DNA from: a virus
Virus record (IMG/VR): IMGVR_UViG_3300025677_000006
Coordinates: 1-64,000 of that record
Length of the DNA: 64,000 bases
Reading direction: 5' to 3' (one strand)
The notes beneath the pieces were generated by a model. The model saw nothing but the letters and a program-made list of their open reading frames with translations. It was not told where the DNA came from and ran no database searches. The position numbers and the translations under genes were made by a program. Every line of letters begins with the position of its first letter. The stretch's first letter is position 1. Positions 4,521 through 64,000 of this stretch are shown here, one piece after another.

Positions 4521-6158
4521 ATGGATAAACAGGTAAAAATATTATTGGGTGATAAAAAAAATATAGATTCTACAAATACTGATTTGCATGATAATATATC
4601 ATTAACGAATGAAATATCTGAAATTGTTGAATATGATGTTCATAAAACTATTAGTTCTAGTGAACAATATATAAAAGAAAGAGAAAATAGTGATAATTAT
4701 AGATTTTATGGTAAATTTGAATGGATTTCGCTATTAAATAACCTCAAATTTGGTTATAATGAATTAAAGGATTTTTTTAAACCAAGTGAAAATAATTCTA
4801 AAAATATTTTAAATTCATTTGATTTTTATTTAGTTAAACCAGAATTAAATTTAGATGAAGTAGAAGAACAGCCAAAAATATTAATTGATGAAAATTTTGA
4901 TGATTGGGTAATATCAGAACCAACGGATTATCCAAGAGGATGGGATGTTATTGTTAAGGGAGATTCTTATATGTCACAAACATTAGCAAATCAAGCAGAA
5001 TTAATAGTACATCCTAGTGGTATGTTACAAAATGGTACGATTCAAATGACAAAAAACATAATAGAATCCTATGGTACTTTGGTTTTTAAAACTAAAACAA
5101 CTGTATATGGTAATGTTGAAAATGATAGTTTTAGGGTTTTATTAAAATTTGATGATGATAATTATAAAGATTTTAATGTTTCTCTTACAGAAGATGGTGA
5201 AAAAACATATACTTGTGATATTGACAATGAAAATCCTATACGTAAAATAGTTATTATAGTAAAAGGTAATTCCCTAAAAGTTTATTTAGACTATATAAAA
5301 ATTGAATTATACAATGATTCTCAAAATATTAAAAGAAAATTTAAAGTATTAGCAACGCCTAACGATTTTACTATTCATAATGCTGGTTTTTCAAAAAATG
5401 TATATAACGAACAAATTTATTATTGGGATATTGATAAAACAATTAAACTTTCTGATTTTGCAAAAGATGATGAATACCCAATAACTGAATTATATTTATA
5501 TGCTAAATATATAGAATCAAATAATGGTAATAATGATTCAGAATTGTTAAAATTTTGCACTTGGATGTATGATGAAGAAGATGATGAATATGAAATGAAA
5601 ATTTTAAACAGTAAATTATTATCAATTGGTGATTATGTTACTAATAATGAAAATGAATATATTTCTGATATTGTTAAATATGATAAAAAAAATTATAATC
5701 AAGAATTATTGTTAGAACAAAAATTCAATATATATACTTTTCATTATAATGAAGATAATTTAAAAATAAGATTAGTTTGGAAATATAATCCATTTATACC
5801 GATAAGATTAAGATATTTAAGCAGTGATGTTTATAGTATTAGTTCTAATGATAGTATATATGAAAATATTGAACAAATACCAAAACATGCAATTGATATT
5901 TTGAATAATAATACATATATTTGGAGAGAAATTTTACCAGAAGGTTATTTTGAACCATTAACGAATATTGGTGTAGACCATCCGTTTTTAAATGATAATC
6001 ATTATATTTTTACACCAACAATATTTTCAGTTACACCCGATTTAAATGATATTACAACAAAAAATATATTTGATGAACTTTGGTATACAAAAAACGGTGA
6101 AATTACTTCAATTAAACCAAAAAATAATTTAGATGATATTGGAAAACCATGCTTATAA
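4521..6158 (+). CDS. Hypothetical protein, paralog family B (copy 2, with ~130-aa insertion)
   Basis: 545 aa. Aligns with 852..2189 over N-terminal, central and C-terminal blocks. Has an extra segment of about 130 aa near residues 120-260. Confidence 0.6.
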   Translation: MDKQVKILLGDKKNIDSTNTDLHDNISLTNEISEIVEYDVHKTISSSEQYIKERENSDNYRFYGKFEWISLLNNLKFGYNELKDFFKPSENNSKNILNSFDFYLVKPELNLDEVEEQPKILIDENFDDWVISEPTDYPRGWDVIVKGDSYMSQTLANQAELIVHPSGMLQNGTIQMTKNIIESYGTLVFKTKTTVYGNVENDSFRVLLKFDDDNYKDFNVSLTEDGEKTYTCDIDNENPIRKIVIIVKGNSLKVYLDYIKIELYNDSQNIKRKFKVLATPNDFTIHNAGFSKNVYNEQIYYWDIDKTIKLSDFAKDDEYPITELYLYAKYIESNNGNNDSELLKFCTWMYDEEDDEYEMKILNSKLLSIGDYVTNNENEYISDIVKYDKKNYNQELLLEQKFNIYTFHYNEDNLKIRLVWKYNPFIPIRLRYLSSDVYSISSNDSIYENIEQIPKHAIDILNNNTYIWREILPEGYFEPLTNIGVDHPFLNDNHYIFTPTIFSVTPDLNDITTKNIFDELWYTKNGEITSIKPKNNLDDIGKPCL

Positions 6159-14449: not shown

Positions 14450-14938
14450 TTGCATTATATTATTTTTATTATGTTTAATATTGAATATGATATTACATTA
14501 AATGAAAATGGTAGACCTTGTGTGGATTTATCAAATGATTATGAAAATAATCCAGAAGATAGATTTTTTGCAATAGAATTAACAAGATATTTATTGGAAA
14601 AAATATATGTTGAAAAGAATGATAAGTTTTCTGAAAATGCAATTAAACACATGAATAATACTATTAAACTATTAGGACAAATAAGTGATGAAATTGCAAA
14701 AATTTTATGGAATAATATGAAAGATAAAGGAGATATTGCATTTTCTTTGAATTCAAATTATCACATACAGGTGGAAAATATTGAAGAATTGTATAATTTA
14801 GATATGAAATATATATATTATAACAATAAAATTTTTGAAAGAAAAGAAGGATTAACTGTTTTGGTTCTTAATGAAATGAAAACATATAAATTAAAAAATG
14901 GGATTTTAAACAATAATTGGATTTCTACAAATGATTAA
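14450..14938 (+). CDS. Hypothetical protein
   Basis: 162-aa ORF. Confidence 0.4.
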   Translation: MHYIIFIMFNIEYDITLNENGRPCVDLSNDYENNPEDRFFAIELTRYLLEKIYVEKNDKFSENAIKHMNNTIKLLGQISDEIAKILWNNMKDKGDIAFSLNSNYHIQVENIEELYNLDMKYIYYNNKIFERKEGLTVLVLNEMKTYKLKNGILNNNWISTND

Positions 14939-17900
14939 TAAACCAACAAAAGAACAAGAAAGAATATTTTTATTTACAAAAAAAAGACCTGAAAATATTT
15001 TAATAAAAGCATATGCTGGTACAGGTAAATGTCTTGGATATGATACACCAGTATTGATGTATGATGGAACAATAAAAAGGGTTCAAGATATAAAAATTGG
15101 TGATTTTTTAATGGGTGATGATTCATCGCCTCGTAAAGTATTGAATAAAAATATTGGATATGGTAAACTATATAAAATAAAAAATGAAATAGGATATTCT
15201 TGGGTTTGTAATGATGTTCATGTAATTACACATTACAATGAAATTTCTAAAATTTTGTTAGATACACCACTAAATGAACTCAAATATTCAAAAAAATGGA
15301 ATGGTTATTTAAAAAATATTAAATTAAAAAAATCCATTGTTGAATTTCAAGAAAATAAAACAGAAATAAATCCATATTTATTAGGATTATGGTTAGGATA
15401 TAATTTAAAAAATAATATAAAACAATTTTTATTTGTCGATTTTAGGTTAACAAGAAAAATAATAGAAAAATTGTTGGAGTTAAAAGATAATTCTTTTTTT
15501 GTTTTAAATAAAACAAGTGTTTGTTTAAATAAAAAATATGAAAAGGGTTTTTATTCCGATGATTTTCAAAAGTGTATTATTTTTAATATTGATAAAAACA
15601 AAAAGAATATTCATTTATCAATACCAGACAAATATCTAATAAATTCTATTGAAAATAGAAAAAAAATCTTGGCGGGTATTTTTGATGTTTATTATAATAA
15701 AAAAAACAGGACATCCAAACTAACAATAATTTCAAAAAGGAAAATAGTTAATTTGAAATTTTTATGTGAAAGTTTAGGTTTTATATATAAAGAGAAAAAG
15801 ATATTTTCTTTTCGAAATAACATTTTTTGGAAAATTGACATTAATGGAAATACTAGCATATTACCTTTAGTATATAAAAGAAAACAAAAAACAAATTACA
15901 ATAATTTATTTTCTTTTAAAATAAAAGAAAATATTATATCACAAGGTTTATATTTTGGATTTACTTTAAATGGTAATGGTAGATTTTTATTGGGTGATTT
16001 TACAATCACACACAATACTTCAACCATAGTTGATGCAGTAAAATTATTACCTAAAGATAAATCTATTATGTTTTTAGCGTTCAATAAACACATACAAGAA
16101 GAATTAAAAACAAAATTACCCGAATATGTTAGATGTTATACAACTTATGGTTTAGGTACGTCTGCAATTAAAAGAAAATATGGTGATAAAATACAATTCG
16201 ATGAATTTAAAATTGATAAAATAATACAATCAAAATCAAAAAATTGGAAATTAAACGATGAATTTGATGATAACGATGATATTTCTTTATATTTAAATAA
16301 TATAAAAAAAATGGTTAATTTATGTAGATTAACATTAACAACAAATTCAGAATTTATTCCAAATATTGCTGAAAAATATAATATACCAATTAAAGAAAAT
16401 AAAGATATTAAAAGAATATTAAAAATATTAGAAGAATCAACAATTGATAGAAAAAATTATGATTTTATTGATATGATATATTTACCAGCAATAGATAGTA
16501 GTATTTGGATGTTTCCTCAAGATTATATTTTTATTGATGAAGTTCAAGATTTAAATCGTTGTCAAATAAAAATTGTAGAAAAATTAATAAAAAAAGATAA
16601 AACTACTGGTAAATATATAGGTAGATTAATATCTGTTGGTGATTATTATCAATGTCAACCTAAAGGAACAAAAATATTAATGAATGATAATACAGAAAAG
16701 GATATTGAAAATTTAAATGTTGGTGATTTAATTATTTCTTACGATAGAAAAAGTAATTCCTTTATTAAAAGTAAAATTAACAATATTGGTTGTAGGTATT
16801 ATAATGGAAATTTAATAAAAATAATTTCAAGAGGATGTGAATCTAAATATACACCAGAACATAAATGTTTGGTTAAAATAAAAAAAACAAAACAATTACA
16901 ATTTGTATTGTGTTTGTTTGAATTGATGGATGAAACTCAACACATACGTATATTCACAATAAGAAATGAGATTGATTTTTTTAAAATTTTTAAGAATAAA
17001 AGTGATGTTAATAAAATTTGGATTTTAAAATCGTACTATTCTTTGTATTATGCATATAAAGATGCTAATTATTATTTAGCAAATAAAGATAAAATATTTA
17101 ATGATTTTAATAAAAATTCAAACTACCCGATATGGAATTCTAATTGGAATATGGATTATAATCAAAATTTTTTAGAAATATATGCAATTAATATTATTCC
17201 AGATTTAATGCAAATTTGCAGTTTAAATGCAAATTTGCACAACATTCAAAAAATATATGAATTAAAATATGAAAAATATTCTGGTTTAGTTTATTCTTTA
17301 GAAATTGATAAATACGAAACATATGTTGCTGATAATATATTAACACATAATTGTATATATGGATTTAATGCAGCAGATGAAAAAGCGTTTGAATGGTTTA
17401 GTAAATTCCCAAATACTAAAACACTACCATTATCAACGTCATTCAGATGTTCAAAAAATGTAATAAAAAAAGCACAAGAAATTGTACCTGATATAAAAGC
17501 ACTACCCAATGCACCTGATGGTATTGTAAGGGATGGTAATGTTTTAAAAGAAGCAGAAAGTGGTGATTTTGTTTTATGTAGAACAACAATACCATTAATT
17601 AAATTATTTTTTGAATTTTTAGAACAAGAAAAAAAAGCAATTGTGAAAGGTTCTGATATTGGTGTTCAGTTAATTGAATTAATTGGTGATATTAAATCTA
17701 TTGACAATTTAATTCTTTTTTGGGATAGAGAATTAATTAAATATAGAAAAGAATTAAAAAAGGAAGGTATTTTAAACCCAAATGAACATAGTGGTTATGT
17801 TACATTAGAAGATAAAGTAACAACATTACTTTTTTTAGCAAAATTATCAAATAGTATTGTTGATTTAAAAAATAAAATTGGTTTAATTTTTAGTGATGAA

Positions 17901-18101
17901 ATTCAAGGAATTTGCTTAAGTACAATACATAAAATAAAGGGTCTTGAAGCAAATAGGGTCTTTATAATAAGACCAGATTTATTACCAATGAAAACAACAA
18001 AAAATTGGGAATTTTTACAAGAAAAAAATTTAGAATATGTTGCATATACAAGAGCAAAAAATGAATTAATCTTTGATAGAAATTGGACAGATATCTCTTA
18101 A
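14931..18101 (+). CDS. UvrD-type SF1 DNA helicase interrupted by two inteins
   Basis: Walker A reads AYAGTGK|C...HN|TSTIV. Motif III reads VGDYYQ|C...HN|CIYGFNAADE (compare UvrD GDDDQSIYGWRGA). C-terminal motifs are STIHKIKGLEANRVFII and YVAYTRAKNEL. Removing the two inserts leaves an extein of about 494 aa. Confidence 0.8.
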   Translation: MINKPTKEQERIFLFTKKRPENILIKAYAGTGKCLGYDTPVLMYDGTIKRVQDIKIGDFLMGDDSSPRKVLNKNIGYGKLYKIKNEIGYSWVCNDVHVITHYNEISKILLDTPLNELKYSKKWNGYLKNIKLKKSIVEFQENKTEINPYLLGLWLGYNLKNNIKQFLFVDFRLTRKIIEKLLELKDNSFFVLNKTSVCLNKKYEKGFYSDDFQKCIIFNIDKNKKNIHLSIPDKYLINSIENRKKILAGIFDVYYNKKNRTSKLTIISKRKIVNLKFLCESLGFIYKEKKIFSFRNNIFWKIDINGNTSILPLVYKRKQKTNYNNLFSFKIKENIISQGLYFGFTLNGNGRFLLGDFTITHNTSTIVDAVKLLPKDKSIMFLAFNKHIQEELKTKLPEYVRCYTTYGLGTSAIKRKYGDKIQFDEFKIDKIIQSKSKNWKLNDEFDDNDDISLYLNNIKKMVNLCRLTLTTNSEFIPNIAEKYNIPIKENKDIKRILKILEESTIDRKNYDFIDMIYLPAIDSSIWMFPQDYIFIDEVQDLNRCQIKIVEKLIKKDKTTGKYIGRLISVGDYYQCQPKGTKILMNDNTEKDIENLNVGDLIISYDRKSNSFIKSKINNIGCRYYNGNLIKIISRGCESKYTPEHKCLVKIKKTKQLQFVLCLFELMDETQHIRIFTIRNEIDFFKIFKNKSDVNKIWILKSYYSLYYAYKDANYYLANKDKIFNDFNKNSNYPIWNSNWNMDYNQNFLEIYAINIIPDLMQICSLNANLHNIQKIYELKYEKYSGLVYSLEIDKYETYVADNILTHNCIYGFNAADEKAFEWFSKFPNTKTLPLSTSFRCSKNVIKKAQEIVPDIKALPNAPDGIVRDGNVLKEAESGDFVLCRTTIPLIKLFFEFLEQEKKAIVKGSDIGVQLIELIGDIKSIDNLILFWDRELIKYRKELKKEGILNPNEHSGYVTLEDKVTTLLFLAKLSNSIVDLKNKIGLIFSDEIQGICLSTIHKIKGLEANRVFIIRPDLLPMKTTKNWEFLQEKNLEYVAYTRAKNELIFDRNWTDIS
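15030..16016 (+). mobile_element. Intein 1 (~329 aa) inserted in helicase Walker A. Contains degenerate LAGLIDADG-like motifs.
   Basis: Starts with Cys right after GTGK and ends with HN before Thr(+1). Internal motifs YLLGLWLGYN and KILAGIFDVYY resemble LAGLIDADG, but with the acidic residues replaced. Confidence 0.7.
16653..17351 (+). mobile_element. Intein 2 (~233 aa) inserted in helicase motif III
   Basis: Starts CQPKG immediately after GDYYQ. Ends ILTHN, followed by Cys(+1) of CIYGF. Confidence 0.7.
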
Positions 18102-20222: not shown

Positions 20223-21905
20223 CTAGGATAAATCACCAACACCAAATGTTGTTAATCCATCACATAAGATTTTACCATAGTAACGGTTTAGAACCATTTT
20301 CTTAGCATAACGTGTTAAAATACCACGAATTGGTGTAAAATCAAATGGATTATACATTACAGGTGTTAATTGCATAGGTATATATGGTGCATAAATATAG
20401 CCGGTTTCCAATATGCTAGTTCCTTTATGTCCAATAAGAACAGTATTAGGTGCTGAATATGGGTCACGGTAAACAACATAACGTCCACCTATTGTACCAA
20501 TTTTTTCAATACCCATATTATACTTATCTTGTTCAGGTGAAGCATTTGAAACGTGGAAATATTCTAAGTCATCAAAAACAGCAGAAACTTCAGGAGATAC
20601 AACTATCCATGATGCACCACCACGTAATGTTGACTTATTAATTTGTGCTGAAATTTGGTTAATTTTAGTAATTAACGTTTGATTCCAGTCTTTTTGTACA
20701 CCATAATAAGTATTAGTTCCTTTTCTTAATCCGTTATAATCCCAACGAGCAGTCCATGCAGCACCACGTCTTAAGTCACGTAATATTTCACGGTCAATTT
20801 CAGCAGCCATTTGTTCTGATAACAATGCAGTTAATTCTGCTTCAGCATCAATATTATGGAATGCAGAAACGTCTTGTGCTAATTCAGGTGTCCACATTGC
20901 TCTCATTTTACGAGTTTCAACACTTACAGTAACATAATCAAGAACGAATGTTACTTCTGCCATTCTTGAATCTTGTTCAAGGTCGCTATATGTTCTATAT
21001 GTTGCAGTATAAGTAGTTCCAGTTGGAATGGTTAATGCATGATAACCATCTTTACCAGGATATTGAACATCAAGTAAAACAACAATTTTACCATTTTTAT
21101 CCACAATACCCTGTCCATATTTTTGAACTTTTACGTTAAATGGTATTGGATTTCCACTTGCAATATTTTCACTTGTATAACCACTTGGTGCTGTAAAAGT
21201 TTTATTTGCTGTTACTTTTAATCCAGCAAGGAATGATTCGGTATCCATTGGTGCGCCAGCAGGACCTACCAATTTACCTGCATTATCAGTAGTAAATCCT
21301 GTGATTTCAAGAGTAACGAATTTATCTCCTGCTGTATAACCTTTAGCAGTTAAACCAGTAATTGATTTACTATCAATACTACCTTTTGATAAATCGAATA
21401 ATGAAGTACCTTCATCATTATATTCAGTTGCATAGAATGCATCGTATAATGAACGAGTTTCAAAATTAGTTGAACTTGTTGATGTTTTTTCAGCAGCATT
21501 TCCATATGCACCATCAGGTGATGTATGAATATTACCAAGTGTTGTTGTATGTGTACTATCTTGTACACGTGTACTAGCCTTTGGATTGATAAAATATAAT
21601 CTACCTAAAGGTAAGTTAAGTGCTTGTACTGAAACAATATCGTTTGCTAATAATTTTGCAAACACCCTACGAATAACAGGGAATGCAACTGTTTCAAATT
21701 GACCGCTTGATGTAGAATCAGAAGATTCTTTAAGCATATGAGATAATTGGTTTTCGAATAATTGAGCGCAATTTTCTTTAATATTGCCATCTAATCCTTC
21801 AAGTAATCCAATTTTTTCCCAACGGTTTGTCGTAATTTCTCTTTGTTCACGAAGTTGTTTAATACCAATGTTACCAACTTCGCCACTTTCCATTAAAAAT
21901 CCCAT
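20223..21905 (-). CDS. Major capsid protein, T4 gp23 family
   Basis: VIRRVFAKLLANDIVSVQALNLPLGRLYF matches T4 gp23 (MVRRAIPNLIAFDICGVQPMNSPTGQVFAL). The C-terminus YIYAPYIPMQLTPVMYNPFDFTPIRGILTRYAK matches gp23 (IYYAPYVALTPLRGSDPKNFQPVMGFKTRYG). The N-terminus has a NCAQLFENQ block as in gp23. Confidence 0.9.
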   Translation of the reverse strand: MGFLMESGEVGNIGIKQLREQREITTNRWEKIGLLEGLDGNIKENCAQLFENQLSHMLKESSDSTSSGQFETVAFPVIRRVFAKLLANDIVSVQALNLPLGRLYFINPKASTRVQDSTHTTTLGNIHTSPDGAYGNAAEKTSTSSTNFETRSLYDAFYATEYNDEGTSLFDLSKGSIDSKSITGLTAKGYTAGDKFVTLEITGFTTDNAGKLVGPAGAPMDTESFLAGLKVTANKTFTAPSGYTSENIASGNPIPFNVKVQKYGQGIVDKNGKIVVLLDVQYPGKDGYHALTIPTGTTYTATYRTYSDLEQDSRMAEVTFVLDYVTVSVETRKMRAMWTPELAQDVSAFHNIDAEAELTALLSEQMAAEIDREILRDLRRGAAWTARWDYNGLRKGTNTYYGVQKDWNQTLITKINQISAQINKSTLRGGASWIVVSPEVSAVFDDLEYFHVSNASPEQDKYNMGIEKIGTIGGRYVVYRDPYSAPNTVLIGHKGTSILETGYIYAPYIPMQLTPVMYNPFDFTPIRGILTRYAKKMVLNRYYGKILCDGLTTFGVGDLS

Positions 21906-46559: not shown

Positions 46560-47750
46560 GTGAAAACAATATATAGGACATATCGCTTTGAATTAAGACC
46601 GACACAAGACCAAAAAGTGTTGCTGGATAAACACTTCGGGTGTGTTAGGTTCGTGTACAATTACTTTCTGAATGAGCGTAAAGAACAGTATCAGGCAAAC
46701 AAGAAGTCTGACAACTATTATGTTCAAGCAAAAACTTTGACTGAATTAAAAAAGCAAGAGGAAACTGCTTGGCTTAAAGAAGTAAACAGCCAAACCCTGC
46801 AATTTGCTTTAAGGTCTTTGGATACTGCATTCCTTAACTTCTTTCGTGGCAATGCCAAGTTTCCAAGATTTAAGTCTAAGAAAAGAAGGAATAGTTTCAC
46901 CGTACCACAACACACAAAATTAGAAGGTAGTAAAATTCACGTACCTAAATTCAAAGAAGGGATTAAATGTATTGTTCACCGTGAAATAAGGGGCGATGTT
47001 GGCAAAATGACCTTTACTAAAACACCGACTGGAAGATACTATGTTTCAATTTTAACCGAAGAACAATATCAACCAAAAGAAAAAACTGGTGCTGTATGTG
47101 GTGTGGATTTAGGTTTGAAAGATTTTGCCATTACTTCTGACGGCATCAAATTCAAGAATAACAGATATACCAAGAAATATGAAAGAGATTTAGCGAAAGC
47201 ACAAAAACATCTTTCTCGTAAGCAAAAAGGTAGCAATTCGTTTGAAAGACAAAAACGAAAAGTTGCCAAAATACACGAGAAAATATCCAACACAAGACAA
47301 GATGTATTGCATAAGGTATCGCATCAACTTGTTTCTGATTATGACATAATTGCTTTGGAAGACCTTAATGTAAAGGGAATGATGAGCAATAGAAAATTAT
47401 CAAAACACATTGCAGATGCAAGTTGGGGTACATTTGTGAGATTCTTGGAGTACAAAGCAGATTGGAACGATAAACAAGTTGTTAAAATCAATCGCTTTTA
47501 CCCCTCAAGCAAAACTTGTAATGTGTGTGGATGGATAAATCAAGATTTAAATCTTTCGGTTCGTGAATGGACTTGCAAAAATGGACATAAATTAGACCGT
47601 GATTTAAATGCAGCAAAGGTCATTCTGAAAGAAGGATTGAAAATAATATCGGGTGGGACGCTCGATAACACGGATGGAGATGGTGTAAGAAGTAGTAATA
47701 CTCAACTATCTGCGAAGTCCGAAGCCCATTTGTCTTTAGCAAATGGGTAG
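46560..47750 (+). CDS. tnpB: IS605 OrfB / TnpB RNA-guided nuclease family protein
   Basis: 396 aa. N-terminal YRFELRPT..Q, a RuvC-like core, and a C-terminal zinc finger CNVCGW...CKNGHKLDRDLNAA. Confidence 0.85.
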   Translation: MKTIYRTYRFELRPTQDQKVLLDKHFGCVRFVYNYFLNERKEQYQANKKSDNYYVQAKTLTELKKQEETAWLKEVNSQTLQFALRSLDTAFLNFFRGNAKFPRFKSKKRRNSFTVPQHTKLEGSKIHVPKFKEGIKCIVHREIRGDVGKMTFTKTPTGRYYVSILTEEQYQPKEKTGAVCGVDLGLKDFAITSDGIKFKNNRYTKKYERDLAKAQKHLSRKQKGSNSFERQKRKVAKIHEKISNTRQDVLHKVSHQLVSDYDIIALEDLNVKGMMSNRKLSKHIADASWGTFVRFLEYKADWNDKQVVKINRFYPSSKTCNVCGWINQDLNLSVREWTCKNGHKLDRDLNAAKVILKEGLKIISGGTLDNTDGDGVRSSNTQLSAKSEAHLSLANG

Positions 47751-62379: not shown

Positions 62380-62543
62380 AAATTTTATTAAATTTTGTAA
62401 CATTTTATAAAAATTATCGTATTTATATCTACAAATAATATTTTTCTAAAAATTTGCATTTTAATTTTTTTTATTTATCTTTGCAGTGATTATTGAAGAT
62501 ATGTTCTTTTAAGATATGTAAACAGAAACTGGTTGTTAATACA

Positions 62544-62616
62544 GTACAATTAACTCAATGGATAGAGTGTTCATTCACAATATGAAATATTGTTGGTTCG
62601 ATTCCAACATTGTAAA
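62544..62616 (+). tRNA. tRNA (73 nt), anticodon unclear (loop TCACAAT, formally ACA)
   Basis: Canonical cloverleaf. Acceptor GTACAAT/ATTGTAA with a G1:A72 mismatch. D-arm ACTC-AATGGATA-GAGT. Anticodon stem TTCAT/ATGAA. T-arm GTTGG-TTCGATT-CCAAC. Confidence 0.5.
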
Positions 62617-62648
62617 AAAATAACAAACAAATTTTCTGTTTTTTGAAA

Positions 62649-62734
62649 TTGCGGTGTGGAGAAATGGTATCTCGCCTGCCTCATAAGCACGGAGTCCCTA
62701 TTGGGTTTAAATGGGTTCGATTCCCATCACCGCT
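62649..62734 (+). tRNA. Type II tRNA (86 nt, long variable arm), anticodon loop CTCATAA (CAT)
   Basis: Acceptor TGCGGTG/CACCGCT with a T1:T72 mismatch. D-arm GAGA-AATGGTA-TCTC. A 19-nt variable arm. T-arm ATGGG-TTCGATT-CCCAT. Confidence 0.5.
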
Positions 62735-62759
62735 ACAAAAAAACGTTCTTTATATAAAT

Positions 62760-62892
62760 GGGGAGTTAGCAAAATTAATACAAAAAATATTATACAATTA
62801 CTTATTTGATATAAGAACTAATAGTATTTACAGTTAGGAAAATGCAATTGTTTTGGATACAATGATTTGTAGGTTCGAGTCCTACACTCCCC
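62760..62892 (+). tRNA. tRNA-Pro(TGG)-like gene with ~68-nt AT-rich insertion between 5' acceptor/positions 8-9 and D/anticodon region
   Basis: The 3' part (62841-62892) is canonical. Anticodon stem ATTGT/ACAAT, loop TTTGGAT, T-arm GTAGG-TTCGAGT-CCTAC, 3' acceptor ACTCCCC. The perfectly matching 5' acceptor GGGGAGT+TA lies at 62760-62768. Confidence 0.35.
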
Positions 62893-62921
62893 GCAGTTTG
62901 GGAAAACTAGAAATGTTTACA

Positions 62922-63007
62922 GTAAATATCGGTTCGAATCCGATATTATCCTACCATAATGGATAATTAGCCGAATTGGTTTAGGCACAAGTAGTTTAAA
63001 CTTGCAA
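62922..63007 (+). ncRNA. tRNA-like element with permuted order (variable/T-arm/3' acceptor first, then 5' acceptor/D-arm/anticodon arm)
   Basis: T-arm ATCGG-TTCGAAT-CCGAT, then 3' acceptor ATTATCC (62927-62950), then a 9-nt spacer. Next come the exact complement GGATAAT+TA, D-arm GCC-GAATTGGTTTA-GGC, and stem-loop CAAGT-AGTTTAA-ACTTG (62960-63003). The previous T-loop is only 59 nt away, so a normal tRNA cannot fit. Confidence 0.3.
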
Positions 63008-63189
63008 AAAAAGAAAATATTTCTAAACTATTCCCTTTTTTATAGAAGAAGAACTGGATGTATTTTCAGTAATATGTGCAAATATATTTACAAAAAAATA
63101 TAACCAAGTTACTTCTTTTTTTTTGCTTTTTTTGTAACATTTTTTAAATACATTCGTAAAATATATTATAATTTTAAATTGGTTTAATT

Positions 63190-63582
63190 ATGGAAAATTT
63201 AGTTTTAACCCAAAAAATGTTGGGAACTATTAAACAAACTTTAATTGATGGTCTTACTGTTGCATCTGGTAGTAAGAGTAGTGCGACTTATTATCATAGT
63301 AGGGATGAACAGATTGTTGCAATTCGAAAAGAAATTAATAAAATGTATAAGATTTCAAAAGAATTGCCACTTTTAATTGCATGTCAGAAAGGTGTTACAG
63401 GAAAATTTATTTCTGAAGTATTATTAAATGAATTTAAAAATACTTCAAGGGGTGGTGCTTGTAATATTATAAGCCCAATTGATTGGTATGATAATGGTTT
63501 ATCTGATAAAGCAATTTTAATTGCTTTGAATAATTTAAATATTGATAATGGAATACCGGTTGCAAATATATTGTCGTTTTAA
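63190..63582 (+). CDS. Hypothetical protein
   Basis: 130-aa ORF. Confidence 0.4.
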   Translation: MENLVLTQKMLGTIKQTLIDGLTVASGSKSSATYYHSRDEQIVAIRKEINKMYKISKELPLLIACQKGVTGKFISEVLLNEFKNTSRGGACNIISPIDWYDNGLSDKAILIALNNLNIDNGIPVANILSF

Positions 63583-63644
63583 TACAATATATTTGTTGTT
63601 ATAAGTATGTATTATTTTTGTTTTACCTTATAAAATATTAGAAT

Positions 63645-63860
63645 ATGGAAATTAGTAATTATGATATACTTCACAAATCAATGTGGAACTCTTATGAAGA
63701 AATAAAAAAATCAAATTTTGAAATGGGTGGTATGGAAGATGATAAAAGAATTGAAATTTTAGAGTTTTATTTACTACCATATTTTATTAAGTACGAAGAA
63801 TTTGAAATAGCACAAGAATTGACAACACAAATAAATATAATTAAATCAAAACAAAAATAA
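63645..63860 (+). CDS. Hypothetical small protein
   Basis: 71-aa ORF. Confidence 0.3.
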   Translation: MEISNYDILHKSMWNSYEEIKKSNFEMGGMEDDKRIEILEFYLLPYFIKYEEFEIAQELTTQINIIKSKQK

Positions 63861-63877
63861 AATTACTTATAACGGCT

Positions 63878-63987
63878 GGGTGTATATGTAGTGTGAGATT
63901 TGAAATACTAACTTTCACTTAACTGATGAAACAAATTAAAAGAAATAACGTACAATAAACAGACGAACCTCACATTACGTATACACC
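63878..63987 (+). repeat. Long-range inverted repeat (19-nt arms, ~70-nt spacer) at the window end
   Basis: GGTGTATATGTAGTGTGAG ... CCTCACATTACGTATACACC. The two differing positions give G.U pairs only when the plus strand is read as RNA. Confidence 0.5.
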
Positions 63988-64000
63988 TTGTTATGTGTAG

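Follow-up and report, generated by a model that had tools for sequence, protein, structure and literature searches.

A 64,000-nt stretch of giant-phage DNA (the window) carries four canonical T-loops, only two of which lie in elements that can be recognized as complete tRNAs. What are the other two part of? The T-loop sequence GGTTCGANTCC occurs as an exact match at 62595, 62714, 62872, and 62931 in the window, always on the + strand, against a chance expectation of 0.04 matches. An earlier note, made from the sequence alone, had located the same four T-loops with an error of only 1–2 nt and had judged that only the first two could be drawn as standard cloverleaves. ARAGORN, which that note had proposed as a check, returned two tRNAs and not four ordinary ones. 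Together with Rfam, it detected 62544–62616 (48.5 bits) and 62650–62736 (47.5 bits) as the sole complete cloverleaves, in agreement with that judgement. The third T arm gave a partial Rfam tRNA match of 25.7 bits, which is under the 29-bit threshold, and the element around the fourth gave no Rfam tRNA detection in the window array. The minimum-free-energy (MFE) folds of the stretches that contain these two T-loops, here termed e3 and e4, recovered the helices described below.

The Array and Its Relatives

The locus is a conserved array of tRNA-shaped non-coding RNAs with one common stem, the "handle", and it is found across a large group of giant phages. At the nucleotide level, neither the array nor 18 kb of the window gave a match in the phage collection; relatives were reached through the flanking proteins, and the array is conserved in dozens of related jumbo-phage contigs. 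In the literature on permuted tRNAs in phages, tRNA mimics, and jumbo-phage non-coding RNAs, we found no description of this RNA family.

Positions 62520–63124 probably constitute an operon whose products are small structured RNAs and which forms a unit with the next gene downstream. A stretch at 62450..62486 on the + strand (TTTG ... TAtcTTTG), read from the sequence, resembles the −33/−7 promoter consensus of Bacteroidota, and the relative L108 has the equivalent TAtaTTTG at the corresponding site. This stretch may act as a promoter ahead of the RNA array.

Two RNAs Retain the tRNA Parts in Unusual Layouts

The third element, e3 (62760..62893, + strand), is a tRNA-shaped RNA in which the handle is inserted in the D loop, as indicated by covariation among 41 distinct homologues. 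Its 3′ acceptor strand ACTCCCC (62886–62892) matches GGGGAGT+TA (62760–62768), forming an acceptor stem between 62760–62766 and 62886–62892. The 5′ strand is located ≈67 nt farther upstream than in a normal tRNA, close to the ≈70 nt that had been claimed. Between the two strands are P2 (62785–62793 with 62821–62829) and, inside it, a P1-equivalent hairpin (62800–62815), followed by ACAGUUAGG at 62830–62838, an anticodon-like arm (62847–62863, loop UUUGGAU), and the T arm (62869–62885). The structure is 96.2% paired (slid controls, 46–54%), with compensatory changes in 21 of the 34 pairs. The e3 covariance model scores 136.3 bits in the window and has 79 strong matches overall, and the MFE fold agrees with the conserved structure.

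The earlier note had interpreted e3 as a tRNA-Pro(TGG) with an insertion or intron. The insertion outside the anticodon loop is real, but the TGG "anticodon" occurs in this window alone, the relatives have about 20 different loops, and the inserted segment is a conserved structured module rather than an intron of a tRNA-Pro. We also considered a mobile insertion flanked by the direct repeat AGTTAG[C/G]AAAAT (62764 and 62832), and rejected it: the repeat is specific to the window and not in the family consensus, and a change of CAGUAA to CAGUUA in the window e3 accounts for it. Separately, the e3 homologues show an alternative helix between a 5′ GAGAUAG and an internal CUAUCUC (92% paired, three compensatory pairs), which is incompatible with part of the acceptor and P2 and has been lost from the window.

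The fourth element, e4 (62900..63035, + strand; 36 distinct homologues, with covariation), is a permuted, YrlA-like tRNA mimic. It is closed by P1 (62900–62904 with 63031–63035) and P2 (62909–62918 with 63015–63024), with a CAGUAA junction. The body then follows in the order T arm (62928–62944), ATTATCC (62945–62951), a 9-nt loop (62952–62960), GGATAAT+TA (62961–62969), D arm (62970–62986), and anticodon-like hairpin (62988–63004, loop AGUUUAA), with an A-rich linker. The acceptor stem (62945–62951 with 62961–62967) is thereby capped by the 9-nt loop. This is the layout from which the earlier note had proposed a permuted element, and the proposal holds at those positions: the 3′ half precedes the 5′ half, and a spacer joins the two at the acceptor. 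The structure is 98.6% paired (slid controls, 36–55%), and 22 of its 35 pairs are compensatory, including all seven of the acceptor-like stem. P1 is 100% and P2 97% paired, with five compensatory pairs. The Levitt 15:48 tertiary pair covaries in all 36 sequences, as G:C in 33 and A:U in 3. The e4 covariance model scores 140.7 bits in the window, with 73 strong matches overall, and the MFE z-score is −3.2.

Because the e3 and e4 layouts are conserved with covariation in the relatives, they are far beyond chance. That e3 and e4 are tRNA genes in decay, remnants of tRNAs at integration (att) sites, or sequences that resemble T-loops by chance would fit the missing ARAGORN and Rfam calls, and A/T-rich helices arise easily in a genome with a G+C content of 24%. 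Against this, e3 and e4 are conserved over their full ≈135 nt, including the insertion, at 65–78% nucleotide identity in dozens of contigs, with compensatory changes in every helix, and the element was not found in 185,579 species genomes except for two short Bacteroidota-MAG contigs. The full-length identity, the covariation, and the strong covariance-model matches rule out decay, integration remnants, and chance, the first two of which had been offered as options in the earlier note.

The order T arm, 3′ acceptor-CCA, spacer, and 5′ acceptor is also that of two-piece tmRNAs, and a weak Rfam permuted-tmRNA match lies nearby (11.5 bits versus a 47-bit threshold). We nevertheless give a negligible chance to e3 or e4 being a tmRNA of the small or two-piece (permuted) kind, and consider this identity effectively ruled out: ARAGORN reports no tmRNA, the acceptors have G3:C70 (e3) and A3:U70 (e4) instead of G3:U70, the alignments show neither a conserved reading frame nor a resume codon, and ≈135 nt is too short for the pseudoknots.

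Four of the Five RNAs Share a Handle

The first RNA, tRNA-X (62520..62641, + strand), comprises the tRNA called at 48.5 bits by ARAGORN/Rfam and flanks that are kept in 28 relatives. Its P1 is formed by AAACAGA (62520–62526) and TCTGTTT (62635–62641), followed by AAC, and its P2 by TTGTTA (62533–62538) and TAACAA (62621–62626). The body (62544–62616) is entered through the junction AUACAG and has an A-rich linker on its 3′ side. Together with its flanks, tRNA-X is 96.4% paired in the alignment; P1 is 98.5% paired, and the window sequence itself shows a double compensatory change there. The anticodon is ACA, and the loop UCACAAU with C33 and the G1·A72 mismatch, both described previously, are confirmed by the ARAGORN/Rfam call. 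Position 1 of tRNA-X coincides with the G of the handle's conserved CAG junction.

The last RNA, e5 (63045..63124, + strand), consists of the handle only and is defined by an exact handle motif at 63052 and 37 aligned homologues. Its P1 is formed by GAAGAAGAAC and GUUACUUCUU, followed by P2, CAGUAA, a small variable insert, and a U run, which is likely the end of the RNA operon. AAC, GU..UU.CAG.A, and UCUUC are conserved in its alignment.

The handle, common to tRNA-X, e3, e4, and e5, thus comprises P1, in which far-apart segments on the 5′ and 3′ sides pair, an internal loop that always contains AAC, P2 with a conserved G·U pair, and a CAGUAA junction that faces an A/C-rich linker. The P1/AAC/P2/CAG layout is found around tRNA-X and in e5 as well. 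The motif AACN5RTRTTTWCAGTWA has three exact matches in the window, all within the array (0.09 expected), and the e4 covariance model detects the other modules weakly, at 27–44 bits. The point of attachment differs among the RNAs: the acceptor end in tRNA-X, the D loop in e3, and, with a loop-capped acceptor, the variable-loop position in e4. The 5′ and 3′ ends pair into the stem in tRNA-X, e4, and e5, and the stem of e3 is internal.

The handles might do no more than serve the processing or stability of a polycistronic transcript of tRNAs, as RNase III stems do for rRNAs, in which case the Ro60-like neighbor described below would represent conserved synteny without functional meaning. P1 and P2 do bracket tRNA-X, e4, and e5, the modules follow one another head to tail behind a single promoter-like site, and pairing of the 5′ and 3′ ends is a common protection of stable RNAs. 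However, AAC and CAGUAA are unpaired and yet most conserved, and the GGGAA/UUCCC of e4 P1 never varies. Moreover, a processing stem at the internal position of the e3 handle would split the molecule, and the handle-only RNAs are themselves conserved. We therefore regard this explanation as unlikely. Because the highest conservation falls on positions that either are unpaired (AAC, CAGUAA) or keep an invariant sequence inside helices, the handle appears to be recognized in a sequence-specific manner.

The Initiator-like tRNA-Met

The handle is absent from the second RNA, an initiator-like tRNA-Met(CAT) at 62650..62736 on the + strand, called by ARAGORN and Rfam. The calls bear out its description as a type II tRNA with CAT and a mismatched first pair: it has U1·U72, A11:U24 (D stem GAGA/TCTC), a CUCAUAA loop, and an extra long variable arm. 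U1·U72 and A11:U24 are universal in its ≈65 distinct relatives, which also keep TGCGGG...CCCGCT-AC and CAT, and the long variable arm is present in about one-quarter of them, the window included. The 1:72 mismatch, A11:U24, the CUCAUAA loop, and the overall similarity to E. coli tRNA-fMet resemble a bacterial initiator tRNA-fMet. In contrast to tRNA-fMet, the mismatch is U·U instead of C·A, the anticodon stem has only some of the three consecutive G:C pairs, and part of the phage family has the long variable arm. On this comparison, the U1·U72 mismatch is best read as the bacterial initiator-tRNA signature rather than a defect. The 1:72 mismatches that had been listed as non-canonical features are thus both present, but one is this signature and the other, in tRNA-X, reflects the CAG junction of the handle.

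Anticodon-like Loops and the Possibility of Working tRNAs

The anticodon is conserved in tRNA-Met alone, as CAT in all members. The anticodon-like loops of tRNA-X, e3, and e4 vary freely among the relatives; tRNA-X has 15 different anticodons, including TCA and TTA, on a single scaffold. In e4, the position 33 nucleotide is G in the window. Directly after the 3′ acceptor strand, 22 of the 36 e4 homologues have N-CCA, and two have a long spacer there, whereas approximately one-third of the e4 relatives cap the acceptor with a tri- or tetraloop and lack CCA. We looked for a bulge-helix-bulge in the closing structure of e4 and found 5 bp, an asymmetric 4/6-nt loop, and 10 bp instead.

These features bear on whether e3 and e4 are working, oddly built tRNA genes, e3 with a D-loop intron and e4 circularly permuted, whose transcripts would become decoding tRNAs through cutting at the handle base, ligation, and RNase P/CCA processing. 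Both contain the full set of cloverleaf parts: the loops are 7 nt long, the T and D loops are canonical, and the acceptor has 7 bp. T4-like phages often carry RNA ligases. The N-CCA of most e4 homologues is in keeping with such genes, the long spacer of two is as in permuted genes, the CAG|UAAAGGUA of e3 could act as A14-G15...G18G19 after excision, and tRNA-X molecules with TCA and TTA anticodons could be suppressors. On the other hand, U33 is not kept and the loops are unconstrained (AGUUUAA in the window, CGGUUAA and others elsewhere), many e4 acceptors are plain capped stems, and excision would leave e3 with a D stem of just 2 bp. The closing helices form no bulge-helix-bulge, no splicing endonuclease is known from bacteria, and the handle-only e5 would be senseless as an intron. 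In addition, the type I scaffolds that carry Leu, Ser, or Ala anticodons are devoid of the identity elements that mark tRNAs for these amino acids. Working tRNAs are therefore an improbable outcome for e3 and e4, and the earlier suggestion of a permuted gene of the archaeal or algal kind, spliced to a functional tRNA, is not supported, given the unconstrained loop and the capped, CCA-less relatives. Another option in the same note, tRNA-derived regulatory elements, fared well.

A Ro60-like Gene Downstream of the Array

Between the end of the array and the start codon (63190) of the next gene, on the same strand, lie 65 nt. Comparison with the intact gene in the twin contig L080 (2908–4554, 548 aa) assigns the first 123 codons to 63190..63557 (+ strand); after codon 123, the window departs from the intact gene, and the open reading frame as read stops at 63582. 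The AF2 model of the protein (pLDDT 91.1, pTM 0.89) shows a ring of helical repeats and, after it, a vWA domain that contains a MIDAS site. In Foldseek, its top 12 matches were all Ro60/Rsr/TROVE structures, including the Ro60 of phage phiLo, with full-length alignments, TM values up to 0.53, and E = 7e-7; the next match had E = 0.04. An earlier low-confidence model gave an equal ranking. The DxSxS and TDG MIDAS residues are invariant over 82 sequences with a mean column identity of 27%. At the sequence level, the protein (≈545 aa) had no match in Pfam, PHROGs, NCBIfam, or a phmmer search of the PDB, and neither 10 remote homologues nor profiles of 30 and 82 sequences matched Pfam TROVE or a solved Ro60. 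The family comprises 343 clusters at 50% identity and is not recognized by Pfam, NCBIfam, or Rfam. The predicted fold, at a moderate TM of ≈0.5, is the sole link to Ro60, and it suggests that the gene probably encodes a very divergent Ro60-like protein.

The array stands upstream of this gene, on the same strand, in ≈80 relatives and in the remote lineages L226, L231, and L232. Near the genes for remote homologues (24–27% identity) in L226, L229, L231, and LR756500.1, we found handle-plus-tRNA, e3-type, or e4-type RNAs on the same strand. An ARPP-1 gene adjoins in all three gene-called remote lineages (L226, L229, and L231; LR756500.1 is unannotated). L229 is an exception in that the RNAs follow ARPP-1 instead of preceding the Ro60-like gene. 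In the remote lineages, neither the RNA nor the protein is alignable by BLAST and the surrounding genes differ, yet the linkage persists, which also counts against synteny without functional meaning.

Comparison with Known Systems

We compared the array with the bacterial and phage YrlA RNAs and Ro60/Rsr (Chen et al. 2014, PMC4201824; structure preprint 10.1101/312249). Y RNA genes lie no more than 4 kb away from Ro60, in the same orientation, and their products imitate a tRNA in which the T arm comes first, the acceptor stem-loop second, and the D arm third. The permuted layout is already known from bacterial YrlA (PMC4201824). The phage array resembles YrlA in its position just upstream of a Ro60-type gene on the same strand, with several RNAs per locus; in the pairing of the 5′ and 3′ ends into a stem; in the body order of T arm, capped acceptor stem-loop, and D arm; and in the Levitt 15:48 covariation. 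In both systems, RNase P could open the 7-bp acceptor stem of some members and leave CCA at the new end, and one accompanying RNA is without the complete tRNA body, namely YrlB in the known system and e5 in the phage array.

The differences are also clear. In place of GNCGAAN0-1G, the presumed Ro60 contact in YrlA, the phage RNAs have the P1-AAC-P2-CAGUAA handle. The GNCGAAN0-1G motif was found in none of the 143 aligned RNAs (36 e4, 41 e3, 38 e5, and 28 tRNA-X modules) and nowhere in the window array; a bare CGAA occurs in about half of the aligned RNAs, unconserved. Rfam 15 listed tRNA alone, with no match to its Y-RNA families, down to E = 10 for the window array and E = 0.1 for five relatives. 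Unlike YrlA, e4 has a complete anticodon-like arm, and its closing helix occupies the variable-arm instead of the anticodon-stem position. A handle in the D loop and a handle on the ends of a whole tRNA are layouts undescribed for Y RNAs. The protein is not recognized by Pfam TROVE, and its partner gene is ARPP-1 and not rtcB/rtcA.

The Thermus phage phiLo encodes two Y-like RNAs (Yrl1 and Yrl2) upstream of its Ro60 gene (PMC12135203; PDB 9KOP, 9L5Y). This arrangement is similar to the one described here, and the phiLo structures are among the top matches of our phage protein, although at TM values of 0.35–0.39, weaker than those of the animal Ro60 structures (0.42–0.53). For the phiLo RNAs, however, the defining feature is a CGAA motif within a stem-bulge-stem, and no tRNA-like character is described; the phiLo protein is recognizable as TROVE.

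Circularly permuted tRNA genes of Cyanidioschyzon merolae and split or permuted tRNAs of archaea share with e4 the order of 3′ half (T arm, 3′ acceptor), spacer, and 5′ half (5′ acceptor, D arm, anticodon arm), and the paired transcript ends. They yield decoding tRNAs with kept anticodons through bulge-helix-bulge cleavage, ligation, and a circular intermediate, whereas e4 has a freely varying loop, many plain capped stems, no bulge-helix-bulge, and bacterial hosts.

The T4 rnaC/rnaD RNAs (species 1 and 2) are stable RNAs of 119–139 nt at the end of a T4-type phage tRNA cluster, and toward its 3′ end rnaC has a hairpin like that of an anticodon arm, then a canonical T arm (CCGGGTTCGAATCCCGG), and finally a strand resembling the 3′ side of an acceptor. 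Homology was rejected, as the e3 and e4 covariance models score ordinary T4 tRNAs alone (39–43 bits), and by eye the handle motif was not found in the rnaC/rnaD sequences; we retain the comparison as an analogy. T4 is not known to encode a Ro60-like protein.

Proposed Role

We propose that the locus is a divergent, YrlA-like phage Ro60/Y-RNA system, to which we assign a probability of roughly 70%. By analogy with Ro60/Y-RNA, and especially bacterial YrlA, the handle would be the docking site for the Ro60-like ring, and the tRNA-shaped body would present the tRNA elbow and L-shape to a second partner. Candidates for this partner include host PNPase, RNase P, the CCA-adding enzyme, another tRNA-binding factor, and a host defence that targets tRNA. 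The ARPP-1 enzyme may work together with the particle. Where the e4 caps read N-CCA, cleavage by RNase P probably opens them, which has been reported for the YrlA of M. smegmatis.

A bolder and rather doubtful extension is that the Ro60-like ring, ARPP-1, and the handle-tethered tRNA bodies form a new type of counter-defence or tRNA-management particle, with the handle grafted onto the tRNA fold at three permissive sites (acceptor end, D loop, and variable loop). The rapidly changing anticodon loops might serve as decoys or bait that keep pace with anticodon nucleases of the host or with other immunity directed at tRNA; or the particle might capture, repair, or gate real tRNAs, with ARPP-1 acting on a ribose or ADP-ribose mark on RNA.

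For annotation, the locus shows that odd tRNA fragments beside the tRNA genes of a phage can have a function as RNAs; the number of tRNAs and any "suppressor tRNA" assigned to such phages should be treated with caution. More broadly, Ro60/Y-RNA particles are conserved from bacteria to humans. The locus adds a large, previously unrecognized protein family and a new conserved partner gene, ARPP-1. It also provides a natural series, in which one handle and the tRNA fold are combined in three topologies, beside a handle-only RNA and a real initiator tRNA. This series distinguishes the conserved parts, namely the elbow, the acceptor-like helix, and the handle, from the unconserved anticodon, and it suggests that Y RNAs could have evolved from tRNAs through permutation.

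Two tRNAs and Two Conserved Structured RNAs

The T-loop sequence GGTTCGANTCC occurs in four copies in 64 kb (62595, 62714, 62872, and 62931), all on the + strand, against a chance expectation of 0.04. ARAGORN and Rfam called two tRNAs only, tRNA-X (62544–62616, +; anticodon ACA) and tRNA-Met (62650–62736, +; CAT), and not four ordinary ones, in line with the earlier note, which had drawn just these two as standard cloverleaves. In Rfam, the third T arm gave a partial, sub-threshold tRNA match and the fourth gave none. Re-reading the sequence bore out that note's base-level description: the 1:72 mismatches of both tRNAs, the displaced GGGGAGT+TA of the third element (e3, 62760–62893, +), and the order T arm, ATTATCC, 9 nt, GGATAAT+TA, D arm, and hairpin in the fourth (e4, 62900–63035, +).

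Relatives were gathered using the flanking helicase and the downstream ORF, yielding 150 loci on jumbo-phage contigs of up to 365 kb. The segments 62740–62895 and 62897–63037 each share 65–78% identity with dozens of these loci, and the supposed insertion of e3 lies inside the aligned conserved stretch. In the alignment of 41 distinct e3 homologues, 96.2% of cells were paired, with compensatory changes in 21 of 34 pairs (slid controls, 46–54%). The fold is a cloverleaf with an acceptor (99.7% paired), a T arm (100% paired), an anticodon-like arm, and a D loop holding a ~70–95-nt module composed of a 9-bp helix (P2) and a hairpin. For e4 (36 homologues), 98.6% of cells were paired and 22 of 35 pairs showed compensatory changes (slid controls, 36–55%), including covariation in 7/7 pairs of the acceptor-like stem. 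The order in e4 is P1, P2, CAGUAA, T arm, 3' acceptor strand, and capping loop, then 5' acceptor strand, UA, D arm, A, anticodon-like arm, A/C-rich linker, P2', and P1'. At its tertiary Levitt pair, 33 sequences have G15:C48 and three, the window among them, have A15:U48. Single-sequence folding of the window copies recovered both structures. The third and fourth elements are conserved structured RNAs.

Of 76 sources searched, 73 each gave one strong match to the e4 covariance model (109–174 bits); the e3 model gave 79 strong matches, often two or three per locus. Apart from tRNA, no Rfam family matched the window array or the five relatives scanned. The e4 signature was found in 76 viral contigs and, among 185,579 species represented by one genome each, was real only in two short Bacteroidota-binned contigs.

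Most e3 homologues can also form an alternative helix, in which 5' GAGAUAG (acceptor positions 4–7 plus UAG) pairs with an internal CUAUCUC just past P2' (window 62760–62811; alignment columns 14–20 with 46–52). This helix covaries, is incompatible with the acceptor and part of P2, and is degenerate in the window; it could represent a folding switch or a processing intermediate.

A Shared Handle Attached in Three Ways

All modules except tRNA-Met carry a common stem module, the handle, comprising P1 (a helix of distant segments), an invariant AAC, a second helix P2 (most often GUGUUU/AAAUAC, in which a G.U pair is conserved), an (A/U)CAGUAA junction, and, on the return strand, an A/C-rich linker. 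Three exact matches to the pattern AACN5RTRTTTWCAGTWA occur in the window, all within the array (expected, 0.09). In tRNA-X, the handle brackets the entire tRNA, with the consensus AAAAGGAAAC-UG-UUUGUUAU-UUCAGUAA|CAAU ... AUUGUU-UA-AAACAAC-AUAACAAA-CGAAAUA-UCCUUUU. The window P1 is doubly compensated (AAACAGA with UCUGUUU), and the odd G1.A72 takes its G from the CAG junction. In e3, the handle sits between nucleotides 13 and 14, with P1 closed as a hairpin, while in e4 it takes the variable-loop position and the acceptor is capped. These three attachment points are sites at which the tRNA fold is known to accept extra nucleotides. A fifth element (e5, 63045–63124, +; 37 aligned homologues) consists of the handle, a small variable hairpin, and a U run.

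Genome Setting and Host

The window belongs to a T4-type phage contig with 24% G+C, encoding the Gp23 major capsid protein (20223–21905) and, ahead of the RNA array region, UvsX-like, 5'-3' exonuclease, and DnaB-like proteins. The two MAG contigs, the source names on homologues (Draconibacterium and Porphyromonadaceae), a promoter-like site TTTG...TAnnTTTG (62450–62486), and the very low G+C suggest a Bacteroidota host, none being decisive.

Elsewhere, a 396-aa TnpB-type protein (46560–47750) has OrfB_IS605 and Cas12f1-like TNB domains; the local G+C peak at its gene (34% vs 24%) suggests a recently acquired IS200/IS605-type element. A 1056-aa UvrD-type helicase (14931–18101) contains two apparent intein/Hint insertions, a Hom_end-associated Hint (residues 34–87) and an intein splicing domain (583–807). 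The 14-mer TTTTGTAACATTTT occurs twice, just past the helicase gene ahead of the array (62394–62407) and directly ahead of the gene downstream of the array (63130–63143), where it is 93–96% conserved in several relatives; it may act as a promoter or regulatory site specific to the phage.

A Ro60-Like Gene Downstream of the Array

The 130-aa ORF at 63190–63582 is the truncated start of a longer gene: its homologues extend well beyond residue 123, and the ORF is intact, at 548 aa, in L080, a near-identical contig from IMG/VR. The window parts from L080 after 63557 (codon 123; L080 3275 onward) and from a 99.97% identical ENA contig after 63562; in the latter, the ORF is interrupted by a DNA methyltransferase gene, leaving parts of 137 aa and 438 aa.

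The family, which is highly conserved (65–72% identity within the clade) and forms 343 clusters at 50% identity, had no Pfam, NCBIfam, or PDB sequence match. A first model, built on a shallow alignment, was of poor quality (pLDDT 65.7), and its best 12 Foldseek matches were all Ro60/Rsr/TROVE. A second model from an 82-sequence alignment (pLDDT 91.1, pTM 0.89) gave exclusively Ro60, Rsr, and phiLo phage Ro60 among its best 12, with full-length alignments, TM values reaching 0.53, and E as low as 7e-7; the first match outside the 12 had E = 0.04 and TM below 0.2. The MIDAS residues DxSxS and (T)DG are invariant. Based on the predicted structure, we assign the protein as Ro60-like.

Three near-identical assemblies differ at the break point: L080 is intact, contigs L222–L225 insert a 266-aa N6/N4 DNA methyltransferase gene between the fragments (L222 3081 onward), and the window has its own sequence (63557–64000), with a 71-aa ORF (63646–63861) and a long inverted repeat, GGTGTATATGTAGTGTGAG ... 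CTCACATTACGTATACACC, at about 63880–63990. The site resembles an insertion hot spot for a mobile cassette or an intron-like element.

Linkage in Remote Lineages

Remote homologues of the Ro60-like protein (24–27% identity) were traced to contigs L226, L231, L229, and LR756500.1, the last an unannotated 462-kb uncultured phage. In L226, three handle modules immediately precede the gene, namely a tRNA(CAT) carrying C1.A72, a tRNA-like body whose loop is 6 nt long, and an RNA made of the handle only. Upstream in L231 are a handle-tRNA(TAA) and a permuted mimic clearly of the e4 type, its acceptor capped by UUCG; LR756500.1 has an e3-type RNA and a handle-tRNA(TAA) upstream. In L229, a handle-tRNA(GAA) and an RNA made of the handle only come right after the neighbouring gene. 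The handle pattern is kept as P1, (G)RAC-YUG/A, P2, and U(W)ACAG in otherwise unalignable sequences.

On the contigs with gene calls, which cover the window clade plus L226, L229, and L231, the Ro60-like gene is closely followed downstream by a gene with an ARPP-1 domain (PF20208). The two are adjacent in L222, L224, and L231, whereas one to three short ORFs separate them in L226 and L229. ARPP is predicted to be an enzyme that acts on ribose or ADP-ribose (PMC9503650).

The L080 ARPP-1 protein (4541–5665) weakly matches Tad5, a Thoeris inhibitor, and a Tad4-family gene comes next after ARPP-1 in L226; these surroundings hint at an anti-defence neighbourhood.

Constrained and Variable Features

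In about 65 distinct relatives, tRNA-Met keeps CAT, U1.U72, and A11:U24, and is an initiator-like tRNA. The scaffold of tRNA-X is constant, and its relatives display 15 anticodons, TCA and TTA included; C33 is peculiar to the window. The e3 loop is GUUGAAA in 19/41 homologues and takes about 20 other forms elsewhere, the TGG that underlay the earlier tRNA-Pro label being unique to the window. The e4 loops vary without keeping U33, and the cap is N-CCA plus 3–5 A/U in 22/36 sequences; in about a third it is a tri- or tetraloop, and in two a 19–21-nt spacer. Thus, selection acts on the elbow, helices, and handle, and not on decoding.

About a quarter of the tRNA-Met relatives (about 16/65), and the window copy (62650–62736), have a long variable arm of 10–16 extra nt, in several unrelated sequences, which is unusual for a Met/fMet tRNA. 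For tRNA-X, TCA occurs in at least five relatives and TTA in two, labelled SeC or Stop suppressors by gene finders; these may have arisen by drift, the loop being unconstrained, or may be genuine suppressors in recoded phages. The window ORFs read through normally under the standard code.

Comparison with Y RNAs

Y RNA genes share the strand of Ro60 and lie no more than about 4 kb from it, and the paired ends of the RNAs form the Ro60-binding stem; bacterial and phage Y RNAs contain a tRNA mimic in the order T arm, acceptor stem-loop, and D arm, with a covarying Levitt pair, and in M. smegmatis YrlA, RNase P opens the RNA and CCA is added (PMC4201824). In Thermus phage phiLo, two Y-like RNAs precede the Ro60 gene (PMC12135203). 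Because the array matches this scheme, we read array and gene, by analogy, as a divergent Ro60/Y-RNA system. Neither the anticodon-like arm of e4, the D-loop-inserted handle of e3, the handle on a full tRNA (tRNA-X), nor the ARPP-1 partner is described for Y RNAs. We therefore do not count the array as a YrlA member; it is a variant set apart from YrlA. Protein–RNA binding, processing, and the biological role of the array are inferred: the protein would dock on the handle stem, with the tRNA bodies as putative effector or bait modules.
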